Source of the DNA: an uncultured Candidatus Saccharibacteria bacterium
Lineage (GTDB): Bacteria; Patescibacteriota; Saccharimonadia; Saccharimonadales; UBA7683
Direction: 5' to 3'
Assembly: GCA_964632215.1 (NCBI GenBank)
Contig: CAZWBG010000001.1
Span: 46,589-110,588 of the forward strand
Length of the DNA: 64,000 nucleotides
Of the stretch, positions 3,211-58,290 are shown piece by piece. The position numbers and the translations under genes were made by a program. The notes under the pieces are model-generated. The model was not told the DNA's origin, searched no databases, and worked only from the letters and a program-made list of their open reading frames with translations. How positions within the stretch are numbered: the stretch's first letter is position 1; the number at the start of each line of letters is the position of its first letter.

Positions 3211-4485
3211 CTAGAAGAGTCGGTCCCAGAGGCTTTGGGAAACACTCGGTAGTGGGTTCTCCTGGTTCACCTCAGTCTGTTGGTTAGTGTTCGTTGTTGC
3301 AGTGTTGGGGTTGGGATCGATTTGGTCTGCTCGTATGATAAGCCTGTTAATATCAGTACCCGGTGGATCACAGGTAAAGAGTGTCACTGTTGGAGTGGCG
3401 GTTTGTGTTAAGACAGAGGTATCCTGGGGTGAAACAATGCTCTTGCTCGTGACTTTGTAAGTGAAGCGCTGACTATTATAGTTAAGGTAAAATATGTCTC
3501 CTGGCTCAAGTTTTTTAAGATTTACAAAAACGTACTTATATTTACCAGAATTGAAGATGTTATTACTCGAGTGTCCGCCAATTACTACATTGCCGTTTGT
3601 ACCAGGGTTAGCAGTGTTGCCAAGCCGTACAACCCCGCGTTCTAAAGCTTTTTGATAACTAGCTTCGCTTACATCTGGCTCGTCGTATACAACCGGAGCT
3701 TCAACACCGATTCTTGGGATGATAATTTTTGGCTCAGGCCCTACCTTGGCCTGAGTGCTCGGCTCTACAATAACCGGCGTGGTAGCAACACCACCGGGAG
3801 AGATGTACTGTTTTACAAACCCTACGATTATCTGGTTGTAGTTTAGTAATAGGAGCGTACAACCGATTGTCAGTGCTGCCATGAGCGGCTTAAAATGGCT
3901 ACTACTCTTCACGCGCTTGGCTTGCTCCTGAACTCGGTTACGCACTTTCTGCCGCAGCTCTCTTGTAGTTTCTTGTTGTTCACTCGGCTGCTCAGGCGCA
4001 GAATAAGCCACAGATGCTGGAGAATCTGGTACGGGGTTGGCGGGGGCGATTGGTTCAGATGGATGACGCTTCTGCTGTTGCCACCAACCTGCATAATAAC
4101 GATAAAAGTATTGGTGGTAGTACTGCTGCCAAGCCGTGTGGTATTGCTGCCAGTCAACGGGTTCTCCATTCGTAGCGGGCGGCTGCTGGTTGGGCTGGGC
4201 CACTGCGTTATTATGGTGTCCTCCTTTGAGTTCTGCATGATTCACCACTGGATGCTCTGTAGATGATTTCTGGTTGGGCTCACCTTCTATCAAATAAGTT
4301 CGTTCAAGTTGATGGCGCGCAAGTTGAGCGGCTTGTTGATTGTCTGGCGTATGGGTAGCTTTAACTGGCCACTGGATGGGTGGTCTGTGCGTTTGTTGTC
4401 TGGCGGGAGTGCCACGATCGGACTGTAGTTTTTTGCGGTCGTTCATAGGTAATGCTCGTGCTAATCTACTTGGTATAGTGTACAA
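3211..4485 (-). CDS. sortase family transpeptidase (possibly class E), with a long low-complexity N-terminal region
   Basis: His-Cys-Arg catalytic signature in order: VVIGGHSSNN ... VTLFTCDPPGT ... NRLIIRA. TM MAALTIGCTLLLL. TTG at 4485; alternative ATG at 4446. Confidence 0.8.
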   Translation of the reverse strand: MYTIPSRLARALPMNDRKKLQSDRGTPARQQTHRPPIQWPVKATHTPDNQQAAQLARHQLERTYLIEGEPNQKSSTEHPVVNHAELKGGHHNNAVAQPNQQPPATNGEPVDWQQYHTAWQQYYHQYFYRYYAGWWQQQKRHPSEPIAPANPVPDSPASVAYSAPEQPSEQQETTRELRQKVRNRVQEQAKRVKSSSHFKPLMAALTIGCTLLLLNYNQIIVGFVKQYISPGGVATTPVIVEPSTQAKVGPEPKIIIPRIGVEAPVVYDEPDVSEASYQKALERGVVRLGNTANPGTNGNVVIGGHSSNNIFNSGKYKYVFVNLKKLEPGDIFYLNYNSQRFTYKVTSKSIVSPQDTSVLTQTATPTVTLFTCDPPGTDINRLIIRADQIDPNPNTATTNTNQQTEVNQENPLPSVSQSLWDRLF

Positions 4486-7369: not shown

Positions 7370-8188
7370 CTAGTTCTGGGCTTTGAGGTACTCAGCGTAG
7401 GTATATGCGCTATGGGTTAATGCTTCGAACGGCTTGGTGGGATTCCAGGTTTGATAGCCTGCAACAAAAGTACTTAGCGGAAGTCGCCAATGTTTTGGTT
7501 CGGCATCTTGATTAAGTTTTGTAGTACTGACGCTACCATTTGCGGCACAGATAAGTTGATTTTGGTGTAAGGTGACAAAAGCGGTTGGATACTCAGTACT
7601 TAAATTATGCATAAATGAGACAAGTCGTGGTAGATCAATTGAAGAAACCAGTGGCATCGGATGACCAATTTGTTTCACGAGCTTTTGTAGTTGCCCAAAG
7701 GCTAAAACTAGGGTTGTGGCAGGTCGCTGTAATAGAGCTTGAGAGGCGGTGTGTAGTAGCTCCATACTATCTCGCGTGACAACAATGTTACCAGTGTAGG
7801 CTTTTACGAGTTGCTCAAATACTATCGCTGTTTGAGAGTTACGGCCGCTATCACCAGTGAGCAAAATAGTATCTGCCCACTGTGAGTATTCCATTAATTC
7901 GTTAAAACCGTCTTGGGCAAGCTCACCACTTGGCGTGCTCGGCAGGTAAAGTGCTTGTGGCAAGAATGCCTGCACCAGTCGCTTTGTTTTATTAGGAAGA
8001 ACAACTCGAACTTCACCCACGCCCTGGCTCTTCAGGAGTTCATAAGCTTGAGCTGGGGCATTCAGGGCGTGTTCGTGCCCGCCTATAACGAGCACGTGCC
8101 CAGCCTGTGCTTTGCGTTCGGGTTTGTTCCACTCTAAATCTGGAAAGAGCGATGTGTTAGTTTGTTTCTGCCAGTATATAGTGTCCAT
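7370..8188 (-). CDS. YjeF C-terminal-like carbohydrate kinase family protein (NAD(P)HX dehydratase-like, divergent)
   Basis: GHVLVIGGHEHALNAPAQAYELLKSQGVGEVRVVLP and ILLTGDSGRNSQT resemble the YjeF_C fold. The start at 8188 is preceded by GGAGGCTAAAA (SD). It overlaps the end of the upstream HAD gene. Confidence 0.5.
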   Translation of the reverse strand: MDTIYWQKQTNTSLFPDLEWNKPERKAQAGHVLVIGGHEHALNAPAQAYELLKSQGVGEVRVVLPNKTKRLVQAFLPQALYLPSTPSGELAQDGFNELMEYSQWADTILLTGDSGRNSQTAIVFEQLVKAYTGNIVVTRDSMELLHTASQALLQRPATTLVLAFGQLQKLVKQIGHPMPLVSSIDLPRLVSFMHNLSTEYPTAFVTLHQNQLICAANGSVSTTKLNQDAEPKHWRLPLSTFVAGYQTWNPTKPFEALTHSAYTYAEYLKAQN

Positions 8189-8879
8189 TTTTAGCCTCCA
8201 GTTCATAAATTACATTTTTACGCTCAACTACAATTTTCCATTGGTGCTCACGGGCAACTGTAAAAAGCCGTTCGTCAGGATTAAAGGCTAACGGATTCTC
8301 TACCATTTCAAGCATTACGGCATCGCTCAGACTATCACCTACTGCGTAACTATCTTTGAATGTAAGCTGATGTTTTTGCACCAGCTGTTCTAGTACTTGT
8401 TTTTTGTCATGACTGGCCACAAATTTTTTGCCACTGAACTTTTGGTCTGTGCGTTCATAGGTCGTGCCCACGAAATCGTCAAAGTCATAATGGTGGGCAA
8501 TCTCACGTACTAGCTCGTGGTGTGAGCCAGAGATAGCTAGCAGAAAATAACCGTCTCCGTGAAGCTTTTTTATCAGATCACGAGTATAGGTATAGACTTG
8601 GTCTTTGTATTCTTCTATAACACGTTGCACCATGGCATCAAAAGATTGAGGCGGCAGTATTTCCAGAGCTGATTCATAAACTTCTATGAGTATATTTTCG
8701 TAGTCTTTGAAGGCTTCGGGGTGTTCACGTCGCTTCCAGACCATTCGAGCTTCGCGAAGCTTCTGATGCGCATCGGTGCCTAACGATTCTTCCTTAGCCA
8801 GTTTGTCGACAATTGTATGATATAACTGCCAGCGAATTAACGTGCCATCAATATCAAAAACTGCAAACTTCTTACTCAT
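8157..8879 (-). CDS. HAD-superfamily hydrolase (subfamily IB-like phosphatase)
   Basis: Motif I FAVFDIDGTLI; SGSHHELV; GDSLSDAVML. Confidence 0.7.
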   Translation of the reverse strand: MSKKFAVFDIDGTLIRWQLYHTIVDKLAKEESLGTDAHQKLREARMVWKRREHPEAFKDYENILIEVYESALEILPPQSFDAMVQRVIEEYKDQVYTYTRDLIKKLHGDGYFLLAISGSHHELVREIAHHYDFDDFVGTTYERTDQKFSGKKFVASHDKKQVLEQLVQKHQLTFKDSYAVGDSLSDAVMLEMVENPLAFNPDERLFTVAREHQWKIVVERKNVIYELEAKNGHYILAETN

Positions 8880-15938: not shown

Positions 15939-16559
15939 GTGATTCGTGTGTCAAAAGCGGATAAAGTTGGCATTCTGCCCGGTTTCGGGTGGATAGTTGA
16001 CCTCAATCCTTGGCTAGCCCTGCTGGCTGCCTGGCTGATCACACCAGGAATGGTGTGGTTCATCGGGTATGTTTTGGAGAGTCGTGTGCCGATGTTCAAT
16101 CGGTATACGTTCCTCTCTTTTGTTCCAGGAGATTTTTTCTTGGGTATTGTGTTTGCTTCCTCTGTTGCGCTGAGTCAGTACCTACCCTTATCGGGCTGGT
16201 ACCAGTCCACTGCGTGGCAGTGGACTGTCTTTGTTGGCGCTTTTGTAGCGTGCCTACTTATGAGGCAGTTTGGAGATAAACCGAACTATACAAACAGGGC
16301 TTTGTGGTCGCCTACTAAGGTATATCACGACTTCTGCCTGTACTGGATCTACGGTTATCTGATGTTTACGGTGGCTGTGCCTTCGGTATTCCTCAGTGAG
16401 TGGTCTAGTGAGACAATGTTTCTCAAGATCATTGCACTCGGAGCCTTCTTGTCGTGGATCAGTACGCTGATCTATGACAATGTCTTTTGCGCTATTCCTC
16501 CAAAAGAGAAAGCCAAACACGCCCACACCTCCACCCCGATACCAATCTGGTATCAGTAG
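15939..16559 (+). CDS. integral membrane protein (about 5-6 TM)
   Basis: Hydrophobic ORF with GTG starts at 15939 and 15948 after AAGAGG. No family recognised. Confidence 0.6.
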   Translation: MIRVSKADKVGILPGFGWIVDLNPWLALLAAWLITPGMVWFIGYVLESRVPMFNRYTFLSFVPGDFFLGIVFASSVALSQYLPLSGWYQSTAWQWTVFVGAFVACLLMRQFGDKPNYTNRALWSPTKVYHDFCLYWIYGYLMFTVAVPSVFLSEWSSETMFLKIIALGAFLSWISTLIYDNVFCAIPPKEKAKHAHTSTPIPIWYQ

Positions 16560-34522: not shown

Positions 34523-35179
34523 ATGAGCATCGAACAAGATTTGGGCTACGAATGGCGAGACAGTAATCCGTCAGAAGAGATTGCTTTATCGGTGATACTG
34601 AGCGCATTGTTTGAAGAAGATGGCATGTGTGAATGGATGGCCGAGCGAACTTACGAGAATGAGGCTTCACTTACGGTAGCCGAGAATCTTCTCAGGAGTC
34701 AGTACCCTCACCTCTTTGGCCAATTAGAACTTCTTGAGCACACACAGGCTGGCAACATATTCCATATGTTGGAGCATCCAGAAATAGCAGACCACTACTA
34801 TCGTGGCGCGACTATCGCCCTACTTGCATTGCACGCTTCGCAGTCGCCCACCTATGAACACCATGATCTTTCAAAGCAATATCTGAGGCGGTTTTCTCAG
34901 CTAGACGGGATTGATCAAGAGAGATGGCTGATCGAAAATTTTGATTATAATAAGAAACATACCGAGGCTTTGAGGCTCTTTATTCTTAATGACTACACCG
35001 AGGGTATGGATGTACCTGCACTTGAGCTTGGAGCTATGTTGGTTGGTGCACGTTATGCCTATATACTTACGACACACTTTGATGCGTGTTATCGACGGGA
35101 AGTTGAGATATCGTGGCTGACTCGAGACCAAGAGTCCTTCAAGGGTTGGCTTGCCTATCGACAAGGTGATTATGCATAG
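34523..35179 (+). CDS. hypothetical protein
   Basis: ORF 34496..35179. Promoter-like TTGACG-17-TATAGC at 34462-34490 places the TSS near 34497, which favours ATG 34523. No motif recognised. Confidence 0.5.
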   Translation: MSIEQDLGYEWRDSNPSEEIALSVILSALFEEDGMCEWMAERTYENEASLTVAENLLRSQYPHLFGQLELLEHTQAGNIFHMLEHPEIADHYYRGATIALLALHASQSPTYEHHDLSKQYLRRFSQLDGIDQERWLIENFDYNKKHTEALRLFILNDYTEGMDVPALELGAMLVGARYAYILTTHFDACYRREVEISWLTRDQESFKGWLAYRQGDYA

Positions 35180-35366
35180 CGTTAGTTTAAAACTACGCTA
35201 GAGGTAGTGTAGGTACGCTATGTGTGGTGTAGTTACATCTTTCTAAACTGATAAAGATTTATCAACTTGGAAAGATGGACAGGTGTGAATCCTGACGAGA
35301 GGGCGCTGGGTAGCGCTCTTTATCTCGGCGCCTTTGAGACGCATCCATCTATACAGGAAGAGCGCA

Positions 35367-35507
35367 TCAGCCAAAAATTGCTCGGCTGATTGCTCCGCCT
35401 GAGTTCTTCTTGGCATCTTGCTCTGCTTGTCTAGCGTCTTTGAGTTTCTGCTCAGCCGCTTTGGCTTCACGTTCGGCTCGACGCCGTGCATCTGCTTGAT
35501 TACTCAA
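35367..35507 (-). CDS. possible 46-aa Lys/Arg/Ala/Glu-rich small protein
   Basis: My reading: GGAGGTGAAGTAA-TTG start, (M)SNQADARRRAEREAKAAEQKLKDARQAEQDAKKNSGGAISRAIFG. Different frame from track ORF 35243..35491. Speculative. Confidence 0.25.
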   Translation of the reverse strand: MSNQADARRRAEREAKAAEQKLKDARQAEQDAKKNSGGAISRAIFG

Positions 35508-35520
35508 TTACTTCACCTCC

Positions 35521-35960
35521 TTCGGAGGCTCGGTCCTGCTTACGTAGGAGATGGATAGAACGAAGTACTGGGACCCTACGGGCTCGTTAGACCTATATGT
35601 GGTTCCTCCTGCGCGTACGCAGAGGTTTCACCACAATTCCTTTCCTGGCGAGGAAGGAATTGGCCCCAGTGTGCCTGAGCGCTGTTGATACGGTTGGTTG
35701 ATAGTACAACCGTATCTCGCTGTCTCAGGCAGAAAGGGGTGGAGTGTCCGAGTGACACCAGCAAGGATACAGCCGGACACTCCACCGATAACCAAGATAG
35801 CCTAAAGTGGCTTTTAGACTACTAAGTGCACGAAGGGTTGATACACTTAGGCTCGGCTGATGGGACAAGCTGGGTCGGCAACTTGCCTGGTATCCATCAG
35901 GATCATCTTGGTCGAATTTAGAGATTTCACACCTGTCAAAGTACTGCATGAGCAGCTCTT
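35521..35960 (-). ncRNA. candidate structured RNA or long 5' leader (unclassified)
   Basis: GC-rich with no convincing ORF. Helices: 13-bp perfect helix 35738-35750/35774-35786; 10-bp helix 35687-35696/35707-35716, nested in 35673-35679/35724-35730; 35635-35645/35652-35661; 35822-35828/35844-35850; 35857-35863/35894-35900. Confidence 0.3.
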
Positions 35961-35991
35961 GTTGGGCGCATCATGCTAAAGCATTATATAA

Positions 35992-38900
35992 TTATGAGGT
36001 GTAATTGTCAATGAGTGTTCGTTCAAAAGCTTGAATGCCTTTAAGGTTTGGTTCAAAGCCGCTAGTATCTGGTAAGTCTAGTGCTAGAATTTTCTGCCAG
36101 ACAGCAGAAATCAGCTGTGTGGTGTATGCAACATCTTCCGATGTAAACTCGTATTCGAGCGTCACGCACTCACTACTTTGAACGCTTGGTTCTACAAACA
36201 CTAGCTGACCCTTGGTCACTGTATACTGGCTGAAATCACGGGAATTTTCTACCAGTAACTTATAGAAGATCAGCTGCTGCTTATATTTATGTAGTTTAAT
36301 ACGTTCAAAATCATCCTTTCCTACCCAATCAAGCGGTGCTTTACCAGTTTTGTAATCTACTACTAATGCTGTTTTATTAGTCTCATTTAGCACAAGTTTA
36401 TCAATAGCACCACTGAGATGGGCTTTGCCAAGTAGTACTCCTTGGTTTCTAAAGCTTAGTTCACTTTTGTCTTGTTCGCCGAAGGTTTGACCACATTGCT
36501 CAAAGAAGGAAGAAAGAGCTGCAATTCCTCGTTCGGTGTAGAGCTTCTCTTCTACTTCGTTCAGGTGATACTGCTTGAGTGAGCGCATGAATTGTCTTGT
36601 GACTGCGCTGATATCAATTTTCCGCCGCTGGGTAAATTCTACATGAGCTTTGTGGATCGCAGCATGTATGGCACTACCATAGCCTGCGCTTGGCCCCATT
36701 GCGGTTGGGAATTGCAATAAGTTGTGCAGCAGAAAAGTCTGCGGTCCGGCTTGGGCGATATCAATAAAGTTATTTAGGTGGGTGCTAGAAAGTTGGTAGT
36801 CTTCGAGTGTACCGTGGAGTGACTGTTTGAGACTTGTTTGTACACTTTCCAAATGTGGTGCTCGCCAGTCAAATTCTAGAGTTTGTATGAGCTTCGCCTG
36901 AGTTGGAGTAGATTCCATAACCTCTTGGTCGAGCGGACTACTATTGAGGTAGCTCACGGGTAGCGAGAGCTTGTCTTTGTCATCATATTGGTAGCTAGAA
37001 ATATATAGCTGTTGTTTGGCACGGGTCATGGCCACGTAGAGGAGGCGCTTTTTGTCATCACTACTCTCACCCGCCCGTTCAATCGGCAAGTTATGTGGTG
37101 GCTTAATGGTGCGTGGGCGTGTGCGGCTTTTTTCTCCCCAAATTGTATCTTGAGCTTCAATAATGAAGACGGTATGAAACTCCAGGCCCTTAGATTTGTA
37201 GGCTGTCATAAGTTCTACGGCATCTTGGTGCGCCAAATGTGGATTGGTATCGATAATATTGATACCAGTTTTCTTGTGCAGCCGAACGAATTCTACTAAA
37301 TCACGCAGTTTTAGGGGTTGGTCGGGTCGGAATTCTCGTAGTTTTTGGCGGAGTACGCGCAGGTTGCTTAAGAGTTCGAGGTAAATTGTGGGCTGGCTAT
37401 GGAGTTTGGAATTGCTAAAGTAGAAGCTCCGAAATGGTGAGTTAAATGATTCACCCGTCTCGTGTATACCAGGCCCAATGAGCTCATCTACAATGTGCTC
37501 TAGGCTTTCAAATCGTGCGAGTTGGGCGGTCTCAAGCAACCAATTAGCAACTTGTATCACCTTAGTATCTTCACTTTCTAACATGATTTCGAGCCAATAC
37601 TTCGGTTCCTCGTAGGTGCTTTGTCGGTAGGCTTCAAGAGATATGCGCCAAATTTGCTGTGGCTTTAAATTCCAGAAAGGATAGCTAAGTATCTCGGGCA
37701 GTAGTGCGTTGGCTTCGGTATAATCTTCATCAACCAAGTACTGCACTATCTGTGCGAGTTGAACCAGTTGTGCAATGTGGGGCTGCTGCAGTACATTGTC
37801 ACGTCGTTCGTAGGCCAGGGGTATGTTGGCTTGCATGAGCGAACGAGCAATGATCTGCAAGTATTTATGTCGCGGTGCCAAAATTGCAATATCGGCCGAC
37901 TTAATACCGGAGGCGATTAATTCCTGAACACGCTGTGTAACCCACTGCTGCTGAGATTGAGGACTCAGAAATGAAATTTGTAGGGCAATTGCCACCTTGC
38001 TGGTGGGCTGTTTGGCTTGTAACTGCTTACTGACACCAAAGCTTCGTGAGATACGCTCTTCTATTTTTTCGCCAACTTCGTGGGCACCGTTGAGTATCGC
38101 CTGAGTTGAGCGGTAGTTTTCATTCAGATCTACAATTTTGGTATCTTGCCAGAGCTCGGCAAAAGTACGCATATTACTGACCTGTGCGCCCTGGAAGGCG
38201 TAAATTGCTTGGTCATCATCTCCTACCGCCAAAATGTTGGGCCGACCCTCGTTAACCGGGTTACTACCCAGACTTTGCATAATACGTAGCTGTGCACCAT
38301 TAGTATCTTGAAACTCATCTATGAGAATGTACTGAAATTGCTCCTGCACCTTAAATCGTAGCTCTTCGTCTTGCTCAAGCGCTAGTACTACTTGCAGAAT
38401 CATGTCATCAAAATCAAGCAGCTGCTTTTCTTGCAGTTTCTTAAGATACTGTTCATAAATATCTGCAACTTCGCTCAGTAGTTGACCTCGGCGGTCATCC
38501 TTCATACTCCAGGTACCTTGATGGTTCTTCTCAAGCCATTCGTTGCGCCAGGCGGTGATAGGTTTAGTAGAGTTGGTTTCTTCCGATTGGGCGATTGCTC
38601 GGCTGGCTGATTCTCGGCAGAGTGTGGCAAGCGGTGGCCACAAAGCTACGCCTTTAACATCTTGTACCTGGATAGTTTCGATGAGTTCAACAAAAGCTGG
38701 AATGACTGCCTTAGAAAGTCGCGGTGTATCAAAGAGTTTGCTGAATTTTGGCTCAATAGTTTTAATAAATTGCTGGTTTGTAGCAATAATTGCTCGTACT
38801 TCATTAGGTGTCAGACCAGCCTGTTTAAGTTCGGCAATGGCCGAGCGGGTGTCAGGCAGGTAGACAAAATCTTCATTAAAGTGAGTGCTGAGCTTATTAC

Positions 38901-39429: not shown

Positions 39430-40668
39430 CTAGTTCTTGTGCAGATCGGCGTTGAGTTCACCCCAGATGGAGTTGCCTCGAGGAATTACCTCAATGGCAC
39501 CATCTTTCGCGTTGCGGCGGAAAATGGCGTCGCTGATCCCACTGAGTTGCACTGCTTTGACGAAGATGGTCTCAGGTATGCCCTTGCCGCTCTTGCCGCG
39601 AACGGCATCCTTGGCTATGGGGTTGTTATCCCAGTCGAAACGGTTGATGCGCACTGGAGTAGTGCTCTTGATGTAGGCACCAACTTCGACTCGGACTCGG
39701 TTTCCAATGGGGATACCAAGTCCGCTTTCGGCCTCAAGGAGGCAGTCTTCGCCGATGCTGATCTTGACGTCGTTGCCACCGGAGAGAGTACCCATCGTTG
39801 AGGCACCTCCACCTATGGCACTTCCCCTACCGGAGACCACACCGGCGCTGATACGCCCTTCCACCATACCCGCACCGAGGGTGCCGGCGTTGAAATTGCA
39901 GGCACCCTCGTGCATCACGGTAGTTCCTTCGGCCAGATACGCCCCAAGGCGTACCCGATTACCATCGGCAATCCGGACACCTTCGGGTACTACCATGCTC
40001 AGCATGGGAGGGAACTTGTCCAGACAGTACACCATCATGGGTGCCCCCAAGTAGAGGCTGCACTCGATCTGAGCCGTGGCGATGTCACCAGGCCTGAATA
40101 CACCGAAGTTTGTCCAGGCCAGCGTCTCCAGCTTGCCGAAGATGCCCCCCAGGTTAATGCTATTGGGTGTTACCTTGCGGTGACTCAACAAGTGCAACCT
40201 GAGATAGACATCAGCGGCATCGACTGCTTCGGACTCGAGATCTCCGATGAAGGTTACGATTGGAACCGCTTCAGCAGCCGATAAGGGCAGTGGCTCGACG
40301 TCGACTGACAGTTCTTTACAGGTGTTATTCAGTGCTGTGAAAACGTCGATGTTGGAGTGCTTGTTGCCGTCACCGTCGAACACGGAGAATGCCACCTTGA
40401 TGGCCTCTCGTGTTGAAATTGAAGACAACTCCCAAGTACCGATATCCTTCACGCGTCCGACCGCATCGCTCAGTAGAGCGGCAGTGCCGTGGTTCTCGCG
40501 AATGTTGACCAGCGGGTACTGCGCGGCGACAATGTCGTCACCGATCTTGAAACCGATTCCCATGGCGAATGCCGCCGGCTCCGCGTATTCCTCCTGTGCT
40601 GCGACTTCGTTGGCAACCCTCAGGAAATCGTTGACAGTCTTGATGTTGTTTGCCCGAAAGAAGTTCAC
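39430..40668 (-). CDS. dapD: 2,3,4,5-tetrahydropyridine-2,6-dicarboxylate N-succinyltransferase (long form)
   Basis: Collinear, from memory, with gammaproteobacterial-type DapD: YLRLHLLSHRKV, LAWTN, DKFPPM, VRLGAYLAEGTTVMHEGACNFNAGTLG, STMGTLSGG, FRRN..GA.E. Hexapeptide repeats. GTG start after AGGAG. About 54% GC (hand count of 120 nt). Confidence 0.8.
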   Translation of the reverse strand: MNFFRANNIKTVNDFLRVANEVAAQEEYAEPAAFAMGIGFKIGDDIVAAQYPLVNIRENHGTAALLSDAVGRVKDIGTWELSSISTREAIKVAFSVFDGDGNKHSNIDVFTALNNTCKELSVDVEPLPLSAAEAVPIVTFIGDLESEAVDAADVYLRLHLLSHRKVTPNSINLGGIFGKLETLAWTNFGVFRPGDIATAQIECSLYLGAPMMVYCLDKFPPMLSMVVPEGVRIADGNRVRLGAYLAEGTTVMHEGACNFNAGTLGAGMVEGRISAGVVSGRGSAIGGGASTMGTLSGGNDVKISIGEDCLLEAESGLGIPIGNRVRVEVGAYIKSTTPVRINRFDWDNNPIAKDAVRGKSGKGIPETIFVKAVQLSGISDAIFRRNAKDGAIEVIPRGNSIWGELNADLHKN

Positions 40669-40782: not shown

Positions 40783-41646
40783 TTAGGTATTGAATTCAAT
40801 ATCCTCAATATCTTGTACAAGTACAGCCATTTTCAGGTCGAGGTCCTCGTCGTGCATATTGATTGCTAATACCGGTACGGAAGAGTTGTCGTCTTCGCCT
40901 GCAGGGGTATTTAGTATTACAATCCCCAAGAAATTACCAGAGTATATTTCAGTACCAGTGTCCGCATCGGTTATGACCTCGAGACTATCTCCGTTTATTA
41001 CAAGCACACGTTCCGCTTGGAGTGTTATCGTCTCAAAGTCAAAGAGTTGGTTTAAATAGTTTTGATAACACTCAATCTGCAGATCACTGATTTCACCAAA
41101 ACGAAGCATGATGTATTCATTGAGTCCTCCAAGGTTGAACTTGTCTCCAAATATAATCTCATCGATATCTTGCGCCATCTCATCCGAATCATCAGGTATA
41201 AACGGAGTATCATCTTCCAAGCCGAAAGAAAGATTCATATCTGCAAAAGGTACAAATGTTTTATGTTGCACAAAGGTATCTTCAACAAGCGTTTGGTACA
41301 CAATAGGTTTTCCTGTATGGACGATCATCCCTAACTGCGGTGTTTCGTGTACTGTAGAGCAGACAACTCGATTAAATGTACCTTCGACATTTCCATCTGT
41401 GAAGATTGATCCCATAACGTGACCGTATTCATCTAAGTGAGGGACAACGATGCATTTTCCATGCAAAATGAGTGGTCTATTTTCGATAATTGGCGCAAGT
41501 TCTAGTGTGTAAGCCTCTAGCTCCTCTCTTAATTCTTCGCAAGGTATACCAAGTTCGAGTTGTCCTTGCAGGATTCTGAACTCATCAAGCAGATAATCGA
41601 TATATTCGCTTTCGTCTGATCTAATATTCTCGTGCGTACCGGACAT
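40783..41646 (-). CDS. hypothetical acidic protein
   Basis: The track ORF extends to 41877 and overlaps the GNAT gene. I trimmed it to ATG 41646 (MSGTHENIRSDESEY). No motif recognised. Confidence 0.5.
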   Translation of the reverse strand: MSGTHENIRSDESEYIDYLLDEFRILQGQLELGIPCEELREELEAYTLELAPIIENRPLILHGKCIVVPHLDEYGHVMGSIFTDGNVEGTFNRVVCSTVHETPQLGMIVHTGKPIVYQTLVEDTFVQHKTFVPFADMNLSFGLEDDTPFIPDDSDEMAQDIDEIIFGDKFNLGGLNEYIMLRFGEISDLQIECYQNYLNQLFDFETITLQAERVLVINGDSLEVITDADTGTEIYSGNFLGIVILNTPAGEDDNSSVPVLAINMHDEDLDLKMAVLVQDIEDIEFNT

Positions 41647-41788
41647 ATTGCTACGAGTATACGCTTCATTTCTCGTATATACACGAGCAGTATATCTTGA
41701 GATTTCTTGAAAATAAAAACGGCTCGCGGCGGGTGGGTGCAAGATTGTGCTTGCTACTCCACTCCGCCGCTTGCCGTTCATGAGGTAA

Positions 41789-42460
41789 TCAGCTGAAGCT
41801 GACGTGGTCCTCGGCCCACCTGATTGCCGTTTTTGCCCGCTTCCGCGCGGTCCGGTACTCGACTGGGATCGGATCACCGTGCCACCAGAAGTTCCAGTGG
41901 CACTTCAGCGGGTTGATCAGACTGTAGCTGGTCATACCTATGTACTGGCCATCAACGAAGCCAGTGTTCCGCTCCTGGAAGACTGGCACGTAGCCGACTG
42001 ACTCAAGCGCTTTGCGGCTGCCCGCGTTGGAATCGTACGCAGCTGACCTGATCTGAGCCAGGTTCAACTGGGTGAACCCGTACCAAGTGCGCGCCCTGTG
42101 GCAGTGCTTGGCAATTCCCTTGCCCCAGTATTCGGGACGGAAGATCAAGCAACCACTGACAGCGTAGGGCATCATTTCGCGATTGATACCGTTCAGGCTG
42201 GTGTTGCCGATCAGCGTGCGCCGATCGCCCTCTAGCACGTAGATCCCCCAGCAGACCGAGGTCTTGTCGCCCCGTGTCTTGTCGAACCACTCGTACTCAT
42301 CTTCGAGTACGGGCGCTCCCCCGGTGTGACCAAGAAGTCTGGTCACCCCATGGTTTTGCATGCCACCGTTCTCAACGAACACCGACATATCTTCTCGCGC
42401 CAGCGGGGCGAGCTCGATCTGGAGCTCCTCCACCTTAAAACGCATAACTGGTCCGAACAT
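41789..42460 (-). CDS. GNAT family N-acetyltransferase (RimJ/RimL-like)
   Basis: YWGKGIAKHCHRARTWYGFTQLNLAQIRSAAYDSNAGSRKALESVGY is the acetyl-CoA binding core. GC-rich. Confidence 0.7.
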   Translation of the reverse strand: MFGPVMRFKVEELQIELAPLAREDMSVFVENGGMQNHGVTRLLGHTGGAPVLEDEYEWFDKTRGDKTSVCWGIYVLEGDRRTLIGNTSLNGINREMMPYAVSGCLIFRPEYWGKGIAKHCHRARTWYGFTQLNLAQIRSAAYDSNAGSRKALESVGYVPVFQERNTGFVDGQYIGMTSYSLINPLKCHWNFWWHGDPIPVEYRTARKRAKTAIRWAEDHVSFS

Positions 42461-53344: not shown

Positions 53345-53394
53345 GCTGTGTACTCCTTTGTTTGCAAAGGTGTGACGACCGAGTCTTAGCCATT

Positions 53395-53439
53395 CTGTTC
53401 GAAATAGGTTCGAATTTCAGCGTGCAATGGAGCCAAAAG
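53395..53439 (+). repeat. att-like junction copy R4b (long form, retains a T-arm-like ggttcgaat)
   Basis: ctgttcgaaataggttcgaatttcagcgtgcaatggagccaaaag aligns with R1 ctgaaagtaggtcgaatccctccgccccagccaagac. Followed by hairpin ttatccgc-tgtg-gcggataa (53461-53480). Confidence 0.5.
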
Positions 53440-53737
53440 GTATTTATACAAACGAGGGGGTTATCCGCTGTGGCGGATAAGACACACAGTTTTGGTCAAT
53501 GCATTCAGTGTGAAAATGCTCTGTGACTATTTACAATTAACACTAGTTGTTGTATAATGTGTATTCGGTAAGATTAATTCTTGCTGACTACTATCTGAAA
53601 TATGAGGTAGTGAAGAGGGAATATTTTTCTCTTCTGTTCTTTAACGTGCTAGCTCAGTCACCTTATTTGAGGTAGGTCAATCGTCATTAAAGTAATTAAT
53701 GGTGTTTGGCCCACCTCAAAACTAACAAGGAGACACT

Positions 53738-54163: not shown

Positions 54164-54213
54164 AGCTTCGGCTTGGTGAGCTAGCACTAAAAAATCCTAA
54201 GAAATCCTTAGGT

Positions 54214-54263
54214 CTGTACCGAAGGTATATGATGGTTACCATCGCACAATACCTTCGGTACAG
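54214..54263. repeat. 15-bp perfect inverted repeat hairpin after the lipoprotein gene
   Basis: ctgtaccgaaggtat (54214-54228) pairs with ataccttcggtacag (54249-54263). Confidence 0.6.
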
Positions 54264-54323
54264 CTAGAGTCCGTAAGTATTACTTGCGCTGATGAGATCT
54301 GAAAGATCGAAACTCAACCCTTC

Positions 54324-54353
54324 CTGAAACACATCCATTAACCTCAGCCAATA
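54324..54353 (+). repeat. att-like junction copy R5 (short form, last copy seen)
   Basis: ctgaaacacatccattaacctcagccaataa. Followed by gccaataaa...tttattggc. Confidence 0.5.
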
Positions 54354-54662
54354 AAGAAACTTACCTCGTGCGGATTTTTATTGGCTGCGCCACCAGCATG
54401 AAAATTTCGGGGCGCAGAATGTGGCTGAATCCCCTACCCAATTATGATGGTATTAAATAAAAACCTTAGTTCCCACAGAACTCTCCTGTATTGGAAGGTT
54501 ATTTTTTTATAATTCCATAAGTTGTAGTTTTCTCGTCTGCTAGGGATCGGATCTTCTAGTCCTTCATTGAAACATGGAGCCAGTCAAACACTTAGGGTAT
54601 TGGGCGGATCGAATTGCGCAAGTTTTACGTATGAGCAAGATTTGGTATACTAATAAATACTT

Positions 54663-57699: not shown

Positions 57700-57858
57700 A
57701 TGTCAAAAATGACAAAAGAAGAAGAAATGAACTGGTACGAACAGTCAAGAAAGCATTGGCGTTCTTGGGGTTCGTGGTTCAGCTGGGGTTCTCCTGTGGG
57801 CTTGGGTATCTTCTTACTCGCCGTTGCAGGTACCGTGTGGATTCTTGCTCAAATCTAG
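57700..57858 (+). CDS. small membrane protein (52 aa)
   Basis: My reading: MSKMTKEEEMNWYEQSRKHWRSWGSWFSWGSPVGLGIFLLAVAGTVWILAQI. AAAGGA lies 9 nt upstream and a terminator follows. I prefer it over track ORF 57603..57923. Confidence 0.45.
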   Translation: MSKMTKEEEMNWYEQSRKHWRSWGSWFSWGSPVGLGIFLLAVAGTVWILAQI

Positions 57859-57873
57859 GGCAACTAATAAATA

Positions 57874-57910
57874 AAAGCAGAGTGCTACTAAACGGCACCC
57901 TGCTTTTATT
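57874..57910. terminator. bidirectional rho-independent terminator
   Basis: aaagcagagtgc-tactaaacg-gcaccctgcttt flanked by A-run and T-run, between convergent genes. Confidence 0.6.
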
Positions 57911-57936
57911 TGGAGTGAGATGAGGCAGTAGTCCCC

Positions 57937-58290
57937 TTATTTACTCCGAAGGATCTTTTCCATGGGTTTGCCTTTAGCTAGTTCATCGATTAGTTTATCA
58001 AGGTAACGGATTTCTTGCATAGTTGGCTCTTTGATATCTTCTACACGAATACCGCAAACTACACCAGTAATTAATTTTCGTGACGGGTTCATCTTAGGAG
58101 CTCTTGCAAAGAATGTTTCAAAGTCTGTTTCTTGTTCCAACTCTAACTCTAGTTCTCTTTGGTTATATCCTGTCAGCCAAATAATGATTTCATCAACCTC
58201 TGTCTTGGTTCGTTCTTTCTTTTCAGCCTTTGTAATGTAATGTGGGTAAATACTTGCGAAGCTGACTGTATAAATTCGATGTTTTTCCAT
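57937..58290 (-). CDS. DUF2200 family protein
   Basis: [42 protein letters not shown] ... [21 protein letters not shown] matches my memory of DUF2200 proteins. Confidence 0.7.

Follow-up and report, generated by a model that had tools for sequence, protein, structure and literature searches.

To our knowledge, pairing between the two ends of a bacterial mRNA has been demonstrated experimentally in a few cases only, for example in the hbs mRNA of Bacillus subtilis, which encodes a small protein, and in the icaR mRNA of Staphylococcus aureus, whose 3' untranslated region (UTR) pairs directly with the Shine-Dalgarno (SD) region and promotes cleavage by RNase III. We know of no case in which such end pairing is backed by covariation across deep lineages. 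Here we set against these systems a stretch of about 450 nucleotides (nt) at positions 35521-35960 of a 64-kb window (the whole stretch of DNA that was analysed) from a deep-branching member of the Saccharibacteria. With moderate confidence, we interpret this flagged stretch as the interior, long and hyper-structured, of the 5' UTR in a minus-strand mRNA of about 740 nt, which would encode a protein of 46 amino acids (aa) and whose 5' and 3' UTRs would pair with each other. An earlier sequence-only reading had proposed a leader ending in an SD-sequestering hairpin before a small open reading frame (ORF) with a TTG start; our analysis supports this proposal and extends it by a promoter, a long-range helix (LR1) and a terminal hairpin.

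For hbs, Braun, Durand & Condon (2017; PMC5737220) describe a highly structured 5' UTR and an interaction of 14 base pairs (bp) that joins the 5' UTR with the 3' UTR, for which the proposed role is to modulate the access of ribonucleases and to couple stability to translation initiation. The Saccharibacteria locus resembles it in being a putative small-protein mRNA with a structured leader and a UTR-joining helix of similar length (12 bp here). Neither sequence nor structure is homologous between the two; our leader measures about 450 nt, the SD is strong and exposed in hbs but sequestered here, and the predicted helix at our locus surrounds the leader entirely, with a terminal hairpin directly after it. 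For icaR, Ruiz de los Mozos et al. (2013; PMC3868564) tie pairing of the 5' and 3' UTRs to translation control. There as here both UTRs of one bacterial mRNA would pair, whereas at our locus an adjacent local hairpin masks the SD, and about 410 nt separate the SD from the conserved long-range helix upstream.

Larger structured RNAs offer further comparisons. The sequences flanking 16S and 23S rRNA in rRNA operons form RNase III helices, and conserved complementary flanks around a large structured RNA are found at our locus too, with a tRNA embedded in one relative (L097; handles of this form denote the loci of relatives); unlike rRNA and tRNA processing stems, the enclosed RNA here has a translated ORF, the helix has only 10-14 bp and any cleavage is putative. 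RNAIII of S. aureus, which is 514 nt long with many hairpins and encodes the 26-aa delta-haemolysin, is likewise a long multi-hairpin RNA with a small ORF and long-range helices closing its domains, and C/U-rich loops and linkers at our locus could, as judged by eye, pair with SD sequences; there is no homology between the two, the ORF here is at the 3' side and a trans-acting role is only putative. OLE, GOLLD, ROOL, HEARO, raiA, RNase P, transfer-messenger RNA (tmRNA), 6S RNA and the signal recognition particle RNA are similar in size range, in enrichment in G+C relative to the genome, in a strong promoter and in dense structure, but the locus matches none of the 4227 models of Rfam 15, which were searched at the gathering threshold and at E up to 10. 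The 64-kb window gave two tRNAs only at the gathering threshold, the best matches of 35200-36100 at E up to 10 were eukaryotic and viral models far below threshold (E 1.7-9), and the loci of 19 relatives gave tRNAs only. ARAGORN found no tmRNA in the window and neither tRNA nor tmRNA in the region. These searches, including the Rfam scan that had been proposed as a check, agree with the earlier failure to recognise tmRNA, RNase P, signal recognition particle RNA, 6S RNA or a T-box by eye.

The structured unit and its conserved frame

Coordinates are those of the window, its first letter being position 1; the RNA unit is read on the minus strand, and its features are collected in Table 1. The flagged stretch had been described as GC-rich, free of convincing ORFs and strongly structured, and each of these descriptions is borne out. 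Its G+C content is 0.51-0.53 against about 0.44-0.47 in the flanks, which fits a structured RNA; its longest ORFs have 74 and 69 aa and match nothing in Pfam and no protein family; and it is the largest non-coding gap of an otherwise very compact window. Compared with dinucleotide-shuffled controls, the z-scores for the folding of a 501-nt stretch are -6.7 (minus strand) and -5.0 (plus strand), those for the 418-nt interior -8.2 in sense and -5.0 in antisense, and that for the full 749-nt unit (35978-35230) is -9.0. In a scan of the whole window for structure, which is noisy at 12 shuffles for each of 640 windows of 200 nt, the two top-scoring windows both lie on the minus strand of the unit: 35201-35400, in the 3' UTR, ranks first, and 35601-35800, in the flagged stretch, second. 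The helices listed by the sequence-only reading are all found where it placed them, among them a perfect 13-bp stem (35738-35750 / 35774-35786), a 10-bp stem (35687-35696 / 35707-35716) set within an outer stem (35664-35679 / 35724-35739), a 9-bp stem CAATTCCTT/AAGGAATTG (35634-35642 / 35654-35662), and the ctaagtg/cacttag and ctgatgg/ccatcag stems, which belong to the minimum-free-energy fold. The boundary drawn at 35521 did not hold: the predicted structured transcript runs on through the small ORF to about 35236.

The minus-strand TATAAT noticed at the start of the region is borne out, a perfect TTGACA standing 17 nt upstream of it. No other site in 35000-36300 is promoter-like. The promoter overlaps the stop codon of the gene for a 1101-aa UvrD/PD-(D/E)XK helicase-nuclease (the helicase below), and the predicted transcription start lies at about 35977-35975. 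Promoters scoring 9-11/12 stand at the equivalent position in L090, L097, L098 and L022.

LR1, a perfect 12-bp complement, encloses the leader, the ORF and the 3' UTR; by our own estimate, the chance expectation for such a complement within about 900 nt is about 0.02. Its arms were cut to one shared register, with GACAG/CUGUC as the anchor, and linked by an artificial A12 spacer. Across the alignment, which has five sequences only, three of them close and two (L097 and L022) each adding several independent double changes, 5 of the 12 pairs are invariant, 7 show compensatory double changes (GGUGUG/CACACC, GACGCG/CGCGUC and GAGAUA/UAUCUC are examples) and pairing holds in 96.7% of cells. The observed values are reached by 0 of 500 shuffles, and slid registers drop to 30-47% paired. 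The terminal hairpin has 17 consensus pairs, 9 of them with compensatory changes, and one G.U pair retained in five of seven sequences in the sense of the small ORF. Covariation in relatives, the comparative check proposed for the flagged stretch, is thus present in LR1 and in the terminal hairpin, but the flagged interior itself is unalignable.

The hairpin CCUCC-GAA-GGAGG that had been held to mask the SD of the TTG-initiated ORF is found at 35528-35516. Hairpins of -9.7 to -12.3 kcal/mol occupy the SD in five of six members with differing sequences: besides that of the window, CCUCU-GGAA-GGAGG in L102, CACUUC-GAAG-GAGGUG in L098, AUCACC-AAAGGA-GGUGAU in L097 and ACCC-GAAA-GGGU in L093. The SD is therefore paired in a local hairpin directly upstream of the start codon, as in RNA thermometers and SD sequestration, and complementary segments of the 5' and 3' UTRs lie in one predicted transcript, as in hbs and icaR. 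LR2, an 8-bp complement, is tentatively proposed as a second long-range pairing. By eye, its CCAU/AUGG core is found again in L102 (11 bp), L093, L097 (with a G.U pair) and L098 (GUCCAU/AUGGAC), with one or two covarying flanking pairs; support is modest, since 8 bp alone are expected by chance.

Homologues of the helicase all come from Saccharibacteria (Saccharimonadales), the nearest being 47% identical, and the organism is a deep-branching member of this group. The exact helicase protein occurs on a 690-kb NCBI contig and, with identical sequence, in two Logan assemblies, and a scan of genome contigs with the helicase gave one distant relative only, L001. Several helicase relatives have the order helicase, small ORF, Dus with 70-150 nt ahead of the small ORF, and the helicase neighbourhoods L004, L006 and L008 have short gaps and unrelated small ORFs, so that the flagged stretch at first resembled a lineage-specific insertion. 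This idea was displaced by syntenic loci reached through homologues of a convergent 218-aa gene: their contigs share with the window the order Dus (-), 218-aa gene (+), large gap, helicase (-), the gap measuring 636 nt in L090, 751 nt in L097 and 896 nt in L098. The window, L022, L090, L097 and L098 are full members, and L093, L100 and L102 are partial loci; L022, recovered by scanning metagenomes with a profile of the helicase, lacks the 218-aa gene but shares the RNA frame.

From the helicase end, the frame consists of a promoter (9-12/12), a 5' hairpin, the motif AC(U/A)UUGACAG followed by about 7 variable nt, an interior of 300-420 nt, a CCAU segment, the SD hairpin, an ORF of 42-54 aa and a 3' UTR with AUGG; it ends with the exact complement of the roughly 7 variable nt ending in CUGUCC, then (A/G)UC and the long terminal hairpin. 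This order is found in L022, L090, L097 and L098 and partly in L093, L100 and L102. Each relative has self-complementary sequence between promoter and motif (seen by eye, not folded separately). The 3' UTR is 83% identical to that of L102 over 95 nt and more weakly similar to those of L100, L098, L097 and L090, the aligned spans lying mostly in the 3' arm of LR1 and the terminal hairpin. On this comparative evidence we regard the frame as a previously uncatalogued RNA family, restricted to Saccharibacteria and present in at least eight independent lineages. The suggestion that the stretch was carried on a horizontally acquired patch is disfavoured, because the unit holds the same position between helicase, 218-aa gene and Dus where these proteins are only 34-47% identical, which argues for long residence and not for recent acquisition. 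Searches of phage and plasmid collections with blastn gave no match, metagenome and viral contigs scanned for the exact pattern of the 13-bp hairpin gave none, and the 120 viral contigs matched by a 14-mer of the frame are all chance hits, none having the paired 5' arm. In the literature on non-coding RNA in Saccharibacteria, Patescibacteria and the candidate phyla radiation, nothing was found on the locus.

Two observations belong to the locus itself. Runs of exactly 100 N stand there in two independent assemblies, at L001 4689-4788 and at L090 4781-4880, the latter covering the ORF region; they may be scaffold gaps caused by palindromic sequence, or masking. A 20-nt tandem direct repeat TACGCTAGAGGTAGTGTAGG / TACGCTATGTGTGGTGTAGT lies at 35194-35233, just past the point where the 218-aa gene stops and just outside the RNA unit's terminal hairpin.

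Table 1. Features of the predicted RNA unit and its convergent neighbour, in window coordinates.
Feature	Position	Strand	Basis and details
Sigma-70-type promoter	36011-35983	-	TTGACA 36011-36006, 17-nt spacer, TATAAT 35988-35983; 12/12 consensus match
5'-terminal hairpin (GCAUGA...UCAUGC)	35946..35976	-	minimum-free-energy fold
Conserved motif ACUUUGACAG + 7 nt	35926..35942	-	kept in L090, L097, L098, L022
LR1 5' arm GACAGGUGUGAA	35937-35926	-	long-range complement of 35289-35278
Hyper-structured, lineage-specific 5' UTR interior	35557..35925	-	predicted helices, z -8.2
Four-way junction A, cloverleaf-shaped	35913-35790	-	predicted; folds alone
Hairpin B, 13-14 bp perfect stem	35786-35738	-	predicted
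Hairpin C	35731-35672	-	predicted
Four-way junction D, cloverleaf-shaped	35670-35567	-	predicted; folds alone
LR2 5' arm AUCCAUCU	35549..35556	-	35556-35549 pairs with 35350-35343 (tentative), brackets ORF
SD-sequestering hairpin GCCUCC-GAA-GGAGGU	35515..35529	-	local fold -10.1 kcal/mol; SD GGAGG 35520-35516
Small ORF, 46 aa, TTG start, (M)SNQADARRRAEREAKAAEQKLKDARQAEQDAKKNSGGAISRAIFG	35367..35507	-	homology to L100
3' UTR	35290..35366	-	LR2 3' arm AGAUGGAU 35350-35343; hairpins 35342-35328, 35327-35296
LR1 3' arm UUCACACCUGUC with overlapping invariant CUGUCCAUC	35274..35289	-	arm 35289-35278; invariant segment 35282-35274
Terminator-like terminal hairpin CAUCUUUC...GAAAGAUG	35236..35277	-	abuts end of convergent 218-aa gene; without U tract
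Convergent 218-aa gene	34523..35179	+	context marker; any RNA-unit membership putative

The small ORF and the convergent gene

The 46-aa ORF, which had been noted as a possibility, is not called by gene callers and has no match in a protein-database search; conservation at the protein level nevertheless indicates that the gene is real. An ORF at the same place in L100 is 41% identical to it (E 5e-7), and an end-anchored comparison of the last 29 codons finds 15 conserved residues, 11 of them encoded by different synonymous codons, including Ser TCA/AGC; similarity to an ORF of L001 is weaker. In most members (L093, L097, L098, L102, L022 and L012) the same slot holds proteins of 42-59 aa with two CxxCxGxG motifs of the DnaJ zinc-finger type, whose resemblance to the DnaJ central domain, Anti-TRAP and DUF5351 stays below threshold. 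The ORFs of the window and L100 encode a charged protein ending in SGGAxSRAI that is unrelated to these mini-proteins, and the RNA frame is kept although the type of ORF swaps.

The 218-aa gene matched itself alone in a word-indexed search, whereas an exhaustive HMMER search returned about ten homologues at 25-46% identity, with invariant residues H185, C189, E193 and W198. Its product is modelled as an all-helical protein (predicted local distance difference test, pLDDT, 84.5; predicted template modelling score, pTM, 0.83) and has no match in Pfam, NCBIfam, PHROG or PADLOC and no fold match in the PDB. The gene adjoins the RNA unit in L090, L093, L097, L098, L100 and L102; L022 lacks the gene, and L095/L096 have it but not the unit. 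The family is linked to the RNA unit in most members, though not strictly.

Interpretation and its alternatives

If the unit is the mRNA that we propose, transcription would start about 7 nt past the consensus promoter overlapping the helicase stop codon, and the RNA would first fold its 5'-terminal hairpin. ACUUUGACAG and the 7 nt after it would pair through the 12-bp LR1 with the end of the 3' UTR, closing the message into one large domain with the terminal hairpin directly after it; within this domain the interior of about 370 nt would form two cloverleaf-shaped junctions and two long hairpins, and the ribosome-binding site would be locked in its short hairpin. By analogy with the described UTR pairings, we infer post-transcriptional control: the end-to-end helix and the terminal stem-loops may govern nuclease access, either shielding the RNA from ribonucleases or forming a defined double-strand cleavage site, and the sequestered SD may limit translation, keeping it low until temperature, a helicase, a standby ribosome or RNA processing opens the hairpin.

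A number of points weigh against this interpretation, in which transcription itself is predicted from sequence. The interior (35925-35557) has no significant sequence similarity to the other family members, only the 16-nt 5' motif and the 3' UTR being alignable, and the sequence of the closest relative, L102, ends 70 nt upstream of the start codon; for both reasons none of the interior helices is backed by covariation, and all are predictions. At about 370 nt, the interior much exceeds what SD control or nuclease protection would need. In L095/L096 the 218-aa gene abuts the helicase and the RNA unit is absent, and in L012 the leader of a homologous zinc-finger ORF is no more than ordinarily structured (z -1.2). 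LR1 is without any G.U pair and so cannot, taken alone, decide between a helix in RNA and inverted repeats in DNA. The majority of stems have perfect Watson-Crick pairing, and the 749 nt as a whole fold at -305 kcal/mol on the plus strand against -297 on the minus strand, so that energy alone does not exclude palindromes at the DNA level. Counts of G.U pairs in the minimum-free-energy folds (19 versus 30) do not discriminate between the strands either. In favour of RNA, a C(UACG)G tetraloop is present on the minus strand alone.

The main alternative, which we consider unlikely but worth weighing, is that the interior is itself a stable non-coding RNA, dual-function or processed, which is released from the mRNA or acts within it. 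The cloverleaf junctions would then be tRNA-like modules for enzymes of the RNase P/Z type, and LR1 an RNase III-type stem such as those flanking rRNAs. A true tRNA-Phe lies within the 5' UTR of L097 (5059-5133, minus strand), and this leader at least is expected to be cut by tRNA-processing enzymes. At the equivalent position, L098 has a 69-nt cloverleaf (4342-4410, minus strand) with the canonical T arm GUAGG-UUCGACU-CCUAC, a 7-bp acceptor stem and a closed anticodon arm; L090 and domains A and D of the window have larger four-way junctions, as predicted from single sequences. Other loci have similar elements: L012 one with a canonical T arm, an acceptor stem, a closed anticodon arm and a GCCA end downstream of its ORF (8157-8232, plus strand), and L010 one that weakly matches the ends only of the tmRNA model (4133-4206, plus strand; 20.8 bits, E 1.5e-4). 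Taken together, these predictions are suggestive of a tRNA-like series across the locus, but neither ARAGORN nor Rfam calls the cloverleaves of L098 and L012, and the junctions of the window are single-sequence predictions that lack a tRNA sequence signature, both programs being negative on them.

Extreme structure of the interior recurs without sequence conservation in all five full members. With the window, L097 (z -11.6 sense / -8.8 antisense), L098 (-8.2/-3.2), L022 (-7.3/-3.4) and L090 (-14.7/-7.3) make the sense strand the more structured in five of five, which would fit selection for RNA structure and not for a particular sequence. That a compact genome keeps an interior of 300-420 nt, and that the frame is conserved while the ORF type swaps, likewise favour a non-coding RNA; there is, though, no terminator or conserved processing site between interior and ORF, and the unconserved sequence speaks against a specific trans-acting function. 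A bolder form of this idea, which we put forward as speculation and rather doubt, is a new class of large, Saccharibacteria-specific framed RNA in which a conserved closing helix and terminal hairpin hold a fast-evolving, hyper-structured body of tRNA-derived or tRNA-like cloverleaf modules, processed by ribonucleases of the tRNA/rRNA type and acting apart from the small ORF. The true tRNA of L097, the tRNA-like elements of L098 and L012 and the enlarged junctions found in L090 and twice in the window would form its module series. If this were true, the body could serve as a protein- or ribosome-binding decoy or as an exonuclease-resistant stabiliser.

The same lack of alignment between lineages could mean that the interior is mostly non-functional filler, its hairpins made by palindrome-generating mutation or by decayed insertions such as former tRNA genes, with only LR1, the SD hairpin and the 3' UTR under selection. 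The locus is indeed variable (a helix-turn-helix gene in L008, an extra 89-aa gene in L006, the tRNA-like element in L010, the true tRNA in L097), other intergenic gaps of the genome are hairpin-rich too, and the mostly perfect stems suggest youth. We nonetheless think this quite improbable, given that every full member has extreme structure, always stronger on the sense strand, and that hundreds of non-coding bases are kept in a very compact genome. L090 and L098 also share interior similarity, by eye a hairpin with a CCUCCC-rich segment and a long GAAGUA...UACUU hairpin; an alignment of L090, L097 and L098 gives hints of compensatory change, which at three sequences only is too thin to interpret.

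It is very unlikely that the feature acts at the level of DNA, with the arms GACAGGTGTGA / TCACACCTGTC as the inverted repeats of an inverton or as terminal repeats of a cassette-like mobile element that carries the small ORF and palindromic filler. The arms are perfect inverted repeats 510-650 bp apart that co-vary without G.U pairs, the promoter stands just beyond the repeat, an arrangement that some invertons have, ORF type and interior vary by lineage, the unit is missing from L095/L096, and the stems, mostly perfect Watson-Crick, fold on both strands. Position and orientation on the chromosome are fixed in all members despite the divergence of the neighbouring proteins, however, and all five assemblies share the one orientation; the unit is single-copy within the window, where none of its hairpins is repeated; and no recombinase or transposase is found among the neighbouring genes. 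The strand-specific G.U pair of the terminal hairpin, the G.U pair seen by eye in LR2 of L097, the tetraloop on the minus strand only, the stronger sense-strand signal in all five members and the SD hairpins, a feature at the level of RNA, also speak against it.

Least probable is a ligand- or tRNA-sensing riboswitch or attenuator leader, as the sequence-only reading had envisaged: the leader is long and structured and ends in an SD-sequestering hairpin, and the usual family ORF is a DnaJ-type CxxCxGxG mini-protein weakly resembling Anti-TRAP, which in B. subtilis is itself under a T-box leader, but Rfam gives no match at E up to 10, T-box included, no significant similarity links the interior to the leaders of L022, L090, L097 and L098, which argues against a shared ligand-binding aptamer, and no hairpin with a U tract stands between promoter and ORF. 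The SD hairpin is followed by UGAAGUAAUUG, not by a U tract, and the sole terminator-like site in 35000-36300 lies within the helicase gene.

Several further identities were tried and rejected. A GGTTCGA-type T arm in L010 and L012 had raised the idea of a tmRNA, which was abandoned for the window, where the Rfam model has no match at E up to 10, ARAGORN finds none and the ORF, coding for a conserved protein of 46 aa, is provided with an SD and a start codon of its own; a T-box has no Rfam match even at E up to 10. A decayed gene is contradicted by internal ORFs without a Pfam match, the hexapeptide LSHQPS in common with the L001 ORF being chance. There are no direct repeats of the kind that a TIGR guide array (TIGR, tandem interspaced guide RNA) would have. 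As to a miniature inverted-repeat transposable element (MITE) or a repetitive extragenic palindromic (REP)-like repeat, 35200-36100 is unmatched elsewhere in the window beyond chance 12-13-mers, its self-complementary arms aside, the frame motif occurs once, and the position is syntenic in distant relatives.

Other structured regions and significance

Elsewhere in the window, two intergenic gaps of 400-500 nt on the plus strand have many perfect hairpins, 53345-53737 (z -5.4) and 54164-54662 (z -3.1), the latter including a 15-bp hairpin stem near 54214-54262; it may be that intergenic regions rich in hairpins characterise this genome in general. Several of the strongest-folding 200-nt windows (39601-40000) fall in a tetrahydrodipicolinate N-succinyltransferase-like gene at 39430-40668 on the minus strand, which has 55-60% G+C against about 45% for the genome and for which foreign origin or an embedded structure is possible. 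In the same coarse and noisy scan, with its 12 shuffles, the windows 16001-16200 (+), 41601-41800 and 57801-58000 (+) have z below -5.8.

The non-coding RNA of Saccharibacteria and of the candidate phyla radiation is seemingly little known, and in such compact genomes a gap of about 0.8 kb with only a 46-aa ORF is conspicuous. What fills it here is a candidate RNA family that has comparative support and is without an Rfam counterpart. Because covariation is visible at this locus, the frequency with which bacterial mRNAs are closed by pairing of their ends becomes testable by comparative genomics. That a conserved frame surrounds an interior which is unalignable but always hyper-structured, and that some members have a tRNA or tRNA-like modules, could moreover indicate a new way to build or process a structured RNA.

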